Origin: Candidatus Heimdallarchaeota archaeon B3_Heim
GTDB taxonomy: Archaea; Asgardarchaeota; Heimdallarchaeia; Hodarchaeales; Hodarchaeaceae
Length of the DNA stretch: 32,000 nt
Direction of reading: 5' to 3'
Assembly (NCBI GenBank): GCA_003144275.1
Contig: NJBF01000002.1
Location: forward strand, 60,001-92,000
This document shows, piece after piece, positions 5,798 through 7,746 of the stretch. The position numbers were made by a program, and so were the translations under genes. Within the stretch, counting starts at the first letter, position 1; each line of letters starts with the position of its first letter. Below the pieces are notes generated by a model that was not told the origin of the DNA, did not search any database, and was given only the letters and a program-made list of their open reading frames with translations.

Positions 5798-6679
5798 TTG
5801 GTGATTGTTTTGGATATCGAAAATGCGATTTCAGAGATACAGGAGAAGTTTGGGGTAGTTGGACGAGTACGTACTCTTCGAAAACTCATCCTTGGCAAAA
5901 TGGCAGGCAAGCATATCATAATAGAGGGACCAGTTGGGGTTGGAAAAACCACATTGGCTCACGCGGTGGCAGCCTACTTTGATCAAGGATTTATTCGTAT
6001 CGATGGGGATGAAAGATATACCGAAAGTAAGCTTGTCGGATATTTTGAACCCCCCCTCGTTGTAGAAAAAGGGTGGATTTGGGATGCGTTTGTACCGGGA
6101 CCCCTAACATTAGCAATGAAAAATGGTTCAATATTGTTTATTAATGAAGCAAATAGGCTAATCGAAGGAACACAAAATGTCCTATTACCGACCATGGATG
6201 AGGGAATACTCATTATACCTAAACTGGGATCAATAAAAGCTATTGAAGGATTTTTAGTTGTAGCTACACAAAACCCTGAATCTTATATAGGAACAACAGT
6301 TCTTTCAGAGGCTTTAAAAGATCGATTTGTATGGATAAAACTAGAACATCAAGGATATGAGCAGGAACTTGACATTGTTAAACAACAATCTGGACTGGAT
6401 GAAAAGGATCTTTTGATCGGTGAAACTGCAACAAAAATAACTCGTGCAACTCGTAACCACACAGATATTCGAAGAGGTTCCTCCATTCGAGGTGCAATTG
6501 ATTTAGCAAAAATTTTGAGTTTAGTTCAGAGCTTAACTCTTGAAACGGTTTCAGAATTATCTATCATGACACTAGCAACAAAAATCGAACTGGAAGATGG
6601 TGTAGAGAGACCCATCGAAGAAATAATTCATGAAATCGTAGAAGCGATACTCTCTGGGGACGAAGATCGTTTTTTATAA
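5798..6679 (+). CDS. moxR: MoxR-family AAA+ ATPase
   Basis: Walker A GPVGVGKT, Walker B variant FINEANR, QNVLLPTMDEG, VVATQNP sensor 1, EALKDRF arginine finger, SSIRGAI sensor 2. Confidence 0.92.
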   Translation: MVIVLDIENAISEIQEKFGVVGRVRTLRKLILGKMAGKHIIIEGPVGVGKTTLAHAVAAYFDQGFIRIDGDERYTESKLVGYFEPPLVVEKGWIWDAFVPGPLTLAMKNGSILFINEANRLIEGTQNVLLPTMDEGILIIPKLGSIKAIEGFLVVATQNPESYIGTTVLSEALKDRFVWIKLEHQGYEQELDIVKQQSGLDEKDLLIGETATKITRATRNHTDIRRGSSIRGAIDLAKILSLVQSLTLETVSELSIMTLATKIELEDGVERPIEEIIHEIVEAILSGDEDRFL

Positions 6680-6704
6680 AAAAATCCCGAGTAGCCGCTC
6701 GGGA
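6670..6704 (+). other. Putative -1 programmed ribosomal frameshift signal linking moxR to the VWA frame
   Basis: T_TTT_TTA heptamer (6670-6676) in the moxR frame directly before the stop, 8-nt spacer, stem TCCCGAG/CTCGGGA (6685-6704). The -1 frame is open into the ATG at 6742. Confidence 0.6.
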
Positions 6705-6741
6705 ATATAAAAAGAACATTCGCCTCTTCGGTAGACTCAAT

Positions 6742-7746
6742 ATGGAGGATCTAGCTGATGCAGCTATTGCTGCTGGAGATGCATTACCAAAGTTGGATAA
6801 TTTAGATATTGCCAGTTTAGAGCGCTTAACTGAGTCAGCTATTGAACATGAAAATTTGCCAGCCCTGATGTCTCTCGCAAAAATCAATAAATACGCAGTC
6901 TCTAATAGTTTAAATCCAGATCGTCTGGTTTCACTAGGTCGAGTAGCTGGATCAGGAGGGGTGTATACTCCGAGATTATTCTTTGTGATGCGGGGTGTCC
7001 TAGATAAGAAGCGTCGTAAGATCTTAAAACGCTTAACCCGTACATCAATCCTCAAATTATCTTTGAGAATAGCCTCTGAAGGCCTCAGGGGAGATCTGCC
7101 AGTCAGGGGAGAATTTAAACCTGACTCCGACTTCGATTTAGAGGCAACATTGGAGCAAATATTGGAAAAATATCCCGCTGGTATCCCTAGACTCGTTAAT
7201 AAGGATATTATCGGAATAGAACGGCGTGAAAGAAAGAAAAACGGGGTATTGATCTTAGATGCTAGTGGATCGATGATGGGAGAACGCAATATCAATGCAG
7301 CATTATCAGCGGCAGTCATGGCTTTTTCTATGCGTAAAGATCAGTTCGGAGTGGTAGCATTCAACACCAAAGGGTTTCTTATAAAAGGAATCAAAGATGA
7401 ACTTAAGATCGAAGAAATTATGGATAAAATCCTTGATTTAGAAGCAGTAGGATATACTAATATCGAAGACGGACTACGACATGGTGCTATGCAGATCAAG
7501 ACCATGAAAAGCCGTTATAAATGGGCAATATTACTAACTGATGGTGCCTATAACAAAGGAGATGACCCCCGATACTTATGTCGGCAATTTGAAAAACTCC
7601 ATGTCATTAATTTACCAGGAGGCAAAAAATGGGGTGAGAAAGTGTGTCAAGATCTAGCTCGCTTGGGTGGGGGCCGTTATGTAGTGGTCCGCAATTATCA
7701 TGAGGTACCACGAGCTTTGATGAAAATTCTCAGAAGTCCCTGGTAA
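6742..7746 (+). CDS. von Willebrand factor A (VWA) domain protein, MoxR partner
   Basis: MIDAS motif ILDASGSM, GYTNI and LLTDG. The frame is open upstream to 6634. Confidence 0.92.
   Translation: MEDLADAAIAAGDALPKLDNLDIASLERLTESAIEHENLPALMSLAKINKYAVSNSLNPDRLVSLGRVAGSGGVYTPRLFFVMRGVLDKKRRKILKRLTRTSILKLSLRIASEGLRGDLPVRGEFKPDSDFDLEATLEQILEKYPAGIPRLVNKDIIGIERRERKKNGVLILDASGSMMGERNINAALSAAVMAFSMRKDQFGVVAFNTKGFLIKGIKDELKIEEIMDKILDLEAVGYTNIEDGLRHGAMQIKTMKSRYKWAILLTDGAYNKGDDPRYLCRQFEKLHVINLPGGKKWGEKVCQDLARLGGGRYVVVRNYHEVPRALMKILRSPW

Follow-up and report, generated by a model that had tools for sequence, protein, structure and literature searches.

Classical −1 programmed ribosomal frameshifting (PRF) takes place on heptamers such as U_UUU_UUA, followed by a stem-loop, in HIV-1 gag-pol, A_AAA_AAG in Escherichia coli dnaX and A_AAA_AAT in Sulfolobus fucA. 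To our knowledge, conserved programmed frameshifts have rarely been described for cellular (non-mobile) prokaryotic genes, and very rarely for those of archaea. Among the described systems with an AAA+ ATPase and a von Willebrand factor A (VWA) domain, two types are close to the locus analyzed here. First, frameshifted chlD genes (fs-chlD) make use of a −1 shift on poly-A runs, with efficiencies of 10–63% in E. coli reporters (Antonov et al. 2013, PMC3711429). The runs of the three validated chlD cassettes are A7–A11 (PMC3711429), and fs-chlD occurs in bacteria as well as in the archaea Methanocaldococcus and Methanococcus (PMC3711429, PMC9227772). Second, CbbQ and CbbO assemble into a Q6O1 complex; the authors of that work suggested that 'one VWA per AAA+ hexamer' might hold generally and drew a parallel to Rea1/midasin (PMC4660213). 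In NorQD, a single VWA finger is reported to enter the hexamer pore (PMC13036017). The locus in question lies in a stretch of 32,000 nucleotides from Candidatus Heimdallarchaeota archaeon B3_Heim, an Asgard archaeon of the Hodarchaeales (contig NJBF01000002.1, positions 60,001 to 92,000), which is called the window and to which all positions refer unless stated otherwise. On its plus strand, a MoxR-class AAA+ ATPase (5798–6679) is followed by a VWA protein whose frame extends to 7746. Sequence comparison argues, with a probability of roughly three in four, that the two are one recoded gene, from which −1 ribosomal slippage would yield both the ATPase and an ATPase-VWA fusion.

The Asgard pair resembles fs-chlD in several respects. 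A short AAA+ protein and a long AAA+-linker-VWA protein are predicted to arise from one gene by a −1 shift at the border of AAA module and linker, the locus is annotated as two genes, and in-frame fused relatives exist. In addition, the part read after the predicted shift carries a C-terminal VWA domain with a metal ion-dependent adhesion site (MIDAS). The chlD precedent, on which an initial annotation of the window made from sequence alone had drawn, is a real one for short AAA and long AAA-VWA subunits (PMC3711429, PMC9227772). The Asgard pair differs from fs-chlD by its AAA+ family, which is AAA_5/NorQ-CbbQ-like and scored 27–62 bits against chelatase cut-offs of 500–779 bits, and by its signal, a U-rich heptamer at the stop codon with a hairpin instead of poly-A. 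Unlike fs-chlD, the Asgard recoding is phylum-wide and comes in −1, +1 and in-frame variants. Membership in fs-chlD was rejected since the chelatase models remained far below their cut-offs and a search for CobN/ChlH (PF02514) in the window's genome (94% complete) came out empty, while the control gave matches in 5 of 14 reference genomes. The window ATPase reached 28.7 bits with TIGR02442 (cut-off 779), 26.7 bits with TIGR02031 (cut-off 500) and 17.6 bits with PF01078 (Mg_chelatase; cut-off 20.3), while ChlD/cobaltochelatase models gave 29–62 bits for the fused relatives. Of three defining features of fs-chlD, namely a ChlI/ChlD-type AAA module, a CobN/ChlH partner in the genome and a VWA domain with MIDAS joined by a −1 shift, only the last applies to the Asgard pair, with the shift as a predicted one. 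The Asgard gene appears to work like fs-chlD, rather than to be a member of it.

With classical PRF sites, the Asgard site shares a zero-frame heptamer, a GC-rich stem 5–9 nt downstream and, by prediction, two products with a common N-terminus. As in dnaX, one product would end at the shift site; the short product of dnaX is the shifted one, whereas that of the Asgard gene would be the non-shifted one. In contrast to classical sites, the stop codon directly follows the heptamer, and the site belongs to a cellular gene whose conservation extends throughout an archaeal phylum. An upstream Shine-Dalgarno-like stimulator was not seen, though no search aimed at one was made.

In the window, which has a GC content of 36%, the zero-frame AAA open reading frame (ORF) ends with CGT TTT TTA TAA. 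The slippery heptamer T_TTT_TTA, an X_XXY_YYZ in zero-frame phase, occupies 6670–6676 of the plus strand, as the initial annotation had it when assigning the heptamer to the last two sense codons of moxR. It adjoins the zero-frame stop TAA (6677–6679), which would end the short product. The −1 (VWA) frame opens at 6634, after a TGA at 6631–6633, and the AAA frame closes at 6679. Since the two frames overlap only at 6634–6679, any shift must fall within these positions. The site exceeds chance expectation, as zero-frame X_XXY_YYZ heptamers occupy 0.5% of codon positions in the same AAA genes. The heptamer was invariant in 20 of 20 loci of the genus, all of which keep CGT TTT TTA, and in both loci of the sister family. 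Nearby synonymous sites vary within the genus, and so does the stop codon, which is TAA, TAG or TGA among orthologues and lies one codon later in L017 and L018.

Downstream of the heptamer, a stem-loop was found at 6685–6704 of the plus strand, composed of the arms TCCCGAG (6685–6691) and CTCGGGA (6698–6704) and the loop TAGCCG. It is a putative frameshift stimulator. The initial annotation had described a stop, an 8-nt spacer and a 7-bp stem in succession. The stem, the loop and the distance of 8 nt from the heptamer were reproduced. However, the spacer TAAAAAAA (6677–6684) is 8 nt long only with the stop included, so that merely 5 nt separate the stop from the stem, and the stem was lengthened by one G·U pair to 8 bp in ViennaRNA. 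The fold of the downstream 55 nt had a minimum free energy of −13.4 kcal/mol (z of −3.2 versus shuffles, ViennaRNA), and none of the 32-nt windows within the AAA gene of the window matched the stability of the hairpin. A scan of the whole window with Rfam gathering thresholds returned no family.

The −1 frame from its opening at 6634 reads ...FFIKKSRVAAREYKKNIRLFGRLN-M(6742); the part after the heptamer is IKKSRVAAREYKKNIRLFGRLN and continues into the ATG at 6742 without a stop. The predicted trans-frame product has 293 + 22 + 334 = 649 aa, and both the open frame and the size of this AAA-linker-VWA protein agree with what had been read from the window initially. The same is true for the absence of an obvious ribosome-binding site at the VWA Met, as no GGAGG-type motif was visible upstream of 6742 by inspection of the window sequence. 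The locus shows a zero-frame heptamer, a −1 frame open into a coding region under selection, and conservation of both signal and phase, as expected for a PRF site. A putative stimulatory structure 5–9 nt downstream is characteristic for the genus of the window only; elsewhere, such structures are enriched, not universal. A 251-aa ORF runs antisense across the junction (6564–7319, minus strand). It is probably spurious, since the selection patterns fit the plus-strand frames.

The junction was compared across the phylum. Of 41 close relatives, 39 had a VWA orthologue, as did 178 of the 301 genomes sampled across the phylum, and its open frame is nearly always about 360–400 aa long, so that the gene is split in those genomes. 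The comparison covered 79 loci with both halves, leaving out L045 and L050–L052 (stretch too short for a VWA match) as well as L022 and L107 (truncated contigs). The halves were in −1 phase in 68 loci (32 genera), in +1 phase in 7 loci (3 genera) and in frame in 4 loci (family f24 and a metagenome-assembled genome named 'Promethearchaeota' at NCBI). In none of the 79 loci did the VWA gene stand alone, with its frame closed upstream. Between the AAA stop and the first conserved motif, the VWA frame was free of stops in 75 of 75 split loci and 35 of 35 genera, compared to 7 of 75 split loci for the third (control) frame. Based on shuffles of genus representatives, the summed log10 P of the open VWA frame was −17.5.

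The slippery site itself was conserved in kind. An in-frame U_UUY lay within the overlap in 67 of the 68 −1 loci (31 of 32 genera), and the exception carries A_AAC_CCU. A full X_XXY_YYZ heptamer was present in 52 of these 68 loci, versus the background of 0.5% per codon. Depending on the lineage, the heptamer is U_UUU_UUA, U_UUU_UUC/U, A_AAU_UUU/C or G_GGU_UUU; elsewhere, GAU_UUU is followed either by the stop or by a further codon. Wherever a −1 locus has a T6 run, its phase is T_TTT_TTN. The overlap of several species comprises just 10–16 nt, which leaves room for little beyond the slippery site and the stop. Thus, 68 of the 79 loci combine the −1 phase with an open shifted frame and with a heptamer or another slippery U_UUY or X_XXY_YYZ site, the conservation that could be expected of orthologues if the initial annotation was right.

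Hairpins of other families differ from that of the window and have a similar spacing (5–10 nt); for example, L020 has a 9-bp stem CGCACGGCC/GGCCGUGCG 8 nt after the heptamer. The downstream stretch ranked in the top 5% stability of its own gene in 13 of 32 −1 genera, with about 1.6 expected. In families f14, f20 and f27 (L046–L049, L058, L059, L063 and others), GAU_UUU directly precedes the stop (U_UUU_UAG/UAA) and a compact hairpin is absent. The sequence layout of these lineages suggests slippage of a single tRNA in the P-site, with the stop codon as pause.

The +1 loci L026, L027, L029, L075–L077 (all family f4) and L060 (family f22) read UUU_UUU_CGR throughout and have no structure downstream. 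Their junctions are AAG/AAA_TTT_TTT_CGG or CTT_TTT_TTT_CGA. This layout suggests a +1 slip in the P-site before a slowly decoded Arg codon. CGG is a minor codon with a share of 8% of the Arg codons, and CGA, used by L060, is not minor with 20%; the rare-codon argument for the +1 sites is a moderate one.

In-frame fused orthologues, which had been anticipated as a possible finding, do exist and are nested among the frameshifted ones. P0002–P0005 comprise 647–655 aa, and P0027 and the f24 proteins 711–732 aa; all keep the RLFGR motif and have no U-run. The in-frame fused loci include L031, L032, L083 and L084. L083 and L084 retain an NFF/FF remnant at the junction, and the linker of P0002 is new, acidic and free of a U-run. 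The AAA halves were placed in an IQ-TREE tree, for which only a midpoint root was available; the −1 state was found on deep branches and 6 state changes were sufficient in total. The fused state was nested in at least 4–5 places and the +1 state in 2 places. More distant fused AAA_5-VWA proteins occur outside the orthologous group.

The genome of the window contains a second, paralogous AAA_5/VWA pair (L085; G000 contig C34:36500–40000, minus strand; AAA ORF 1440–2297, VWA frame 409–1449). Its AAA ORF ends with ...CCA AAA AAC TAG and thereby offers the heptamer A_AAA_AAC, and the VWA frame is again −1. The two frames overlap by 13 nt, up to the end of the stop, and the first possible start codon of the VWA frame lies 59 codons downstream. 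A hairpin, GCGGGAC-loop-GxCCCGC, is located 7 nt after the heptamer. The orthologues of this pair were in −1 phase in 23 of 23 loci and kept an A-run of 6–13. The hairpin, with a variable loop, was kept in most loci of the genus of the window, and the stop wanders, sometimes into the loop. Another AAA_5 match of the genome, G000 contig C11:4798–5286, is part of a 696-aa open frame, which may be an in-frame AAA-VWA paralogue.

A change of frame could also arise during transcription, if RNA polymerase stuttered on T6 and added one U in some transcripts; the fusion would then be in frame and no ribosome would have to shift. The site is a homopolymer, the +1 families also have T6 or T8 runs, the A-runs of the paralogous family reach 13, and the efficiency of fs-chlD is known to grow with poly-A length (PMC3711429). 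However, many −1 families have T3–T5 or A_AAC_CCU only and still keep a phased X_XXY_YYZ or U_UUY. Moreover, the T6 runs are phased T_TTT_TTN in −1 loci and TTT_TTT_CGR in +1 loci, a difference that is relevant to the ribosome and not to the polymerase. Since the heptamers are phased, structures are spaced at 5–10 nt, loci with T3–T5 or A_AAC_CCU exist and the phasing differs between −1 and +1 loci, a ribosomal shift is favoured over polymerase stuttering. The single RNA contig across the site has T6 as well, which is a weak point as contigs hide minorities. A purely transcriptional origin of the fusion is therefore considered improbable, and stuttering may contribute on longer runs.

Comparison within the genus was informative regarding the start of the VWA protein and the linker. 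Among 17 distinct genus sequences, the codon at the position of ATG 6742 was ATG in 5, TTG in 3 and CTG, CTA, TTA or ATA in 9; a start codon was thus present in 8 of 17. ATG was found in the window species and in L002–L004, L012 and L021. Five loci lack any ATG, GTG or TTG in the VWA frame ahead of the first residue that aligns, which is residue 16 of the VWA protein of the window. For the 22 linker codons, the ratio of nonsynonymous to synonymous polymorphism (pN/pS) was 0.26 in the −1 frame versus 1.4 and 3.5 in the other frames; for the 22 codons before the heptamer, it was 0.10 in the AAA frame. As only the AAA frame before the heptamer and the −1 frame beyond it had a pN/pS below 1, with all other frames above this value, selection switches the frame at the heptamer. 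The motif KNIRLFGR remained unchanged despite many synonymous changes. Judging from these ratios, the 22-codon linker is under purifying selection as a protein sequence in the −1 frame. One copy found elsewhere, L033 (G092 contig C119, family f20, contamination about 11%), is near-identical to L014 of genus g1 and is probably a mis-binned contig.

These data bear on the view that the AAA and VWA frames are two ordinary adjacent genes. In that case, the VWA protein would start from ATG 6742 or be coupled to termination of AAA translation, and the U-run and hairpin would be incidental or form an oligo-T terminator or attenuator that lowers VWA relative to AAA mRNA. Oligo-T tracts do terminate archaeal transcription. 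Besides the loci with ATG at the position of 6742, several other families have, after an RG[RK] linker motif, a conserved ATG that is preceded by a purine-rich, AGAGGA-like stretch and is compatible with a separate start. However, a non-start codon at 6742 in 9 of 17 genus sequences, together with the five loci that lack a start upstream of residue 16, does not fit a conserved VWA start. The purifying selection on the linker upstream of 6742 and the presence of the linker motif in the fused orthologues are not accounted for either, and the same holds for the non-random phase and the VWA frame that is open back across the AAA stop in 75 of 75 split loci versus 7 of 75 for the control frame. Furthermore, a metatranscriptome contig reads through T6. 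Two separate genes are thus quite unlikely, and more so than polymerase stuttering.

The junction was also checked in Logan contigs, which came from three DNA runs, each of a different study, and from one metatranscriptome; runs contributing small shares were set aside. The three DNA contigs crossing the junction showed substitutions and no inserted or deleted letter, and the metatranscriptome contig (6614–6809) reads through the junction with T6 and without an indel, although contigs mask minority U7 transcripts and expression level. Hence, no homopolymer indel was found at T6 or at A7, the two places where the initial annotation had considered one. About 75 genomes, each assembled independently, have the same split layout. 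A sequencing or assembly indel, or a recent pseudogenizing frameshift of a plain fused gene, for which the existence of in-frame fused relatives and the error-proneness of homopolymers could be adduced, is effectively refuted by contigs from four independent runs without an indel, by a T_TTT_TTA-stop layout that is identical in 20 genus genomes and has analogous layouts in 35 genera, by strong purifying selection on both halves, and by a −1 state on deep branches of the AAA tree with only 6 state changes needed.

Several observations weigh against recoding by ribosomal slippage as proposed here. No compact hairpin was detectable in about half of the −1 genera. Within the genus, 5 of the 8 hairpin pairs never vary, one pair is G-C instead of A-U in two sequences and takes the intermediate form G-U in two more, and this covariation is weak, as the observed score was reached by 12 of 500 shuffles. 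The arms encode a conserved Ser-Arg ... Arg-Glu/Asp, so that part of their conservation may be at the protein level. Homopolymers (T6 here, A6–A13 in the paralogue) could equally support transcriptional slippage. Internal initiation may yield some free VWA protein where an ATG exists, i.e., at 6742 here and in five of the closest relatives as well as in several other families. Finally, the in-frame fused relatives indicate that the short product is dispensable in some lineages. Since the covariation is weak, the case for the hairpin relies on invariant codon choice and on the differing hairpins of other families: the Ser codon TCC and the Arg codon CGG of the arms never change, and CGG makes up 9% of the Arg codons in these genes.

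The signal, its phase, the open frame, the selection on the linker, the missing conservation of the VWA start and the in-frame fused relatives all emerged from sequence comparison; the ribosomal rather than transcriptional nature of the shift, its efficiency and its purpose are inferred, as follows. Most ribosomes would read CGU UUU UUA, stop at UAA 6677 and release the 293-aa MoxR-class AAA+ ATPase. A fraction of them would undergo −1 tandem slippage on U_UUU_UUA (6670–6676), with tRNA-Phe and tRNA-Leu re-pairing on UUU UUU, and the GC-rich hairpin of 7–8 bp located 8 nt downstream (6685–6704) probably stimulates this slippage. The shifted ribosomes would pass through the 22-residue linker into the VWA/MIDAS module and produce the 649-aa AAA-linker-VWA protein. 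Recoding may serve to set the ratio of free ATPase to VWA-bearing subunits, such that a hexamer carries few, about one, tethered VWA adaptors, after the pattern of CbbQ6:CbbO1, NorQ6-NorD and the single-chain midasin. If roughly one ribosome in six shifted, rings with about one tethered VWA arm would result. This purpose in subunit stoichiometry is suggested by analogy, and the CbbQ6:CbbO1 stoichiometry and the docking of a single VWA on the NorQ ring make it more plausible.

The ATPase ORF (5798–6679, plus strand, zero frame, 293 aa) was assigned to AAA_5/AAA_3 of the MoxR class by Pfam, with 66 bits for AAA_5 and 52 bits for AAA_3, both above the cut-offs, and by the fold of a fused orthologue. 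Its start codon is uncertain (TTG 5798, GTG 5801 or TTG 5810). In the sequence, the Walker A motif GPVGVGKT is at 5927–5950 and the Walker B region ILFINE at 6131–6148, both on the plus strand. The latter has Asn in place of the Asp of the canonical hhhhDE, and the family consensus retains Glu alone (ExNR). The best NCBIfam match of the ATPase was GvpN with 86 bits against a cut-off of 267, and in the NCBIfam search of the ATPase ORF none of the named subfamilies GvpN, NorQ, CbbQ and RavA was reached at the equivalog level. Nor was any nor, cbb or rubisco context present in the window.

The linker (6676–6741, plus strand), i.e., IKKSRVAAREYKKNIRLFGRLN with its conserved KNIRLFGR motif, is read only in the −1 frame, as supported by pN/pS, the fused orthologues and the model of P0002. 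The VWA module (6742–7746, plus strand) comprises 334 aa from ATG 6742 and consists of an N-terminal helical part and the VWA domain. Pfam domains of this second ORF were VWA_2, VWA and VWA_CoxE, and a motif check on the plus-strand sequence found an intact MIDAS, with DASGS at 7258–7272, the T in GYTNI (7450–7464) and the D in LTDGA (7534–7548). In the AlphaFold model of the fused orthologue P0002, two well-folded modules were predicted (predicted local distance difference test score, pLDDT, of 92.3). Its sole disordered stretch, residues 292–309, falls exactly at the junction of the split genes, and the linker of the window aligns to the disordered linker and the first helix of the VWA module. 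Foldseek matched the AAA module of P0002 best to NorQ and CbbQ, with template modelling (TM) scores of 0.82–0.86, and the C-terminal module matched the VWA domain of NorD by fold (TM of about 0.6). A PDB sequence search with the linker and VWA part gave no match, so the link to NorD comes from the fold search only.

Thus, CbbQ-CbbO and NorQ-NorD (PMC4660213, PMC9976466, PMC13036017) are the closest systems by fold; they consist of a hexamer with about one VWA protein, and the MIDAS is intact in the Asgard pair. They differ in that their VWA protein is encoded by a separate gene with its own start, whereas the Asgard VWA has no conserved start and appears to be joined to the ATPase by recoding. 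No report of a frameshift in CbbQ-CbbO or NorQ-NorD was found in the literature. Midasin/Rea1 shares with the Asgard fusion AAA_5 modules, a long linker and one C-terminal MIDAS/VWA domain, which binds to the ring in midasin. A midasin chain contains six AAA modules, whereas the Asgard chain has one; per module, midasin is no closer than NorQ, and no orthology is claimed. In the PDB sequence search, the best match of the ATPase (5798–6676) was midasin/Rea1 (E of 1.8e-30, compared to 1.8e-12 for NorQ). A specifically midasin-like ATPase was nevertheless dropped as an assignment, as this score sums three modules and NorQ and CbbQ come first by fold.

A wider scenario, to which slightly less than even odds are given, would connect these states. 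An ancient, phylum-wide Asgard recoding of an AAA_5-MIDAS gene would have begun with an ancestral −1 shift. The heptamer would then have changed (U_UUU_UUA/C/U, A_AAU_UUY, G_GGU_UUU, A_AAC_CCU), +1 switches (UUU_UUU_CGR) and several in-frame reversions would have occurred, and the paralogues would independently have acquired an A-run and a hairpin. Frameshift efficiency would fix a few-to-six ratio of VWA adaptors to the AAA+ ring in MoxR-type remodellers, giving a 'midasin-like' six-ATPase/one-MIDAS machine.

The initial annotation had regarded such frameshifting as undescribed for archaeal MoxR, and this assessment stands: the open-access literature yielded no paper that describes frameshifting for MoxR/NorQ-type AAA-VWA genes or for Asgard archaea, with most subscription journals outside the scope of the search. 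The candidate spans at least 35 Asgard genera, shows three interchangeable states (−1, +1 and fused) and has a second, paralogous case. It may therefore serve as a natural system for the evolution of frameshift signals and for the response of the archaeal ribosome to heptamers, stops and hairpins. For annotation, it means that the VWA 'gene', lacking a conserved start, probably should not count as a gene of its own in most of these genomes. In addition, recoding offers a testable explanation for the asymmetric ring-to-adaptor ratio of MoxR/VWA machines and would extend the chlD principle to a second AAA+ family. If the wider scenario is true, a machine of six ATPases and one MIDAS is made by recoding in the closest archaeal relatives of eukaryotes.

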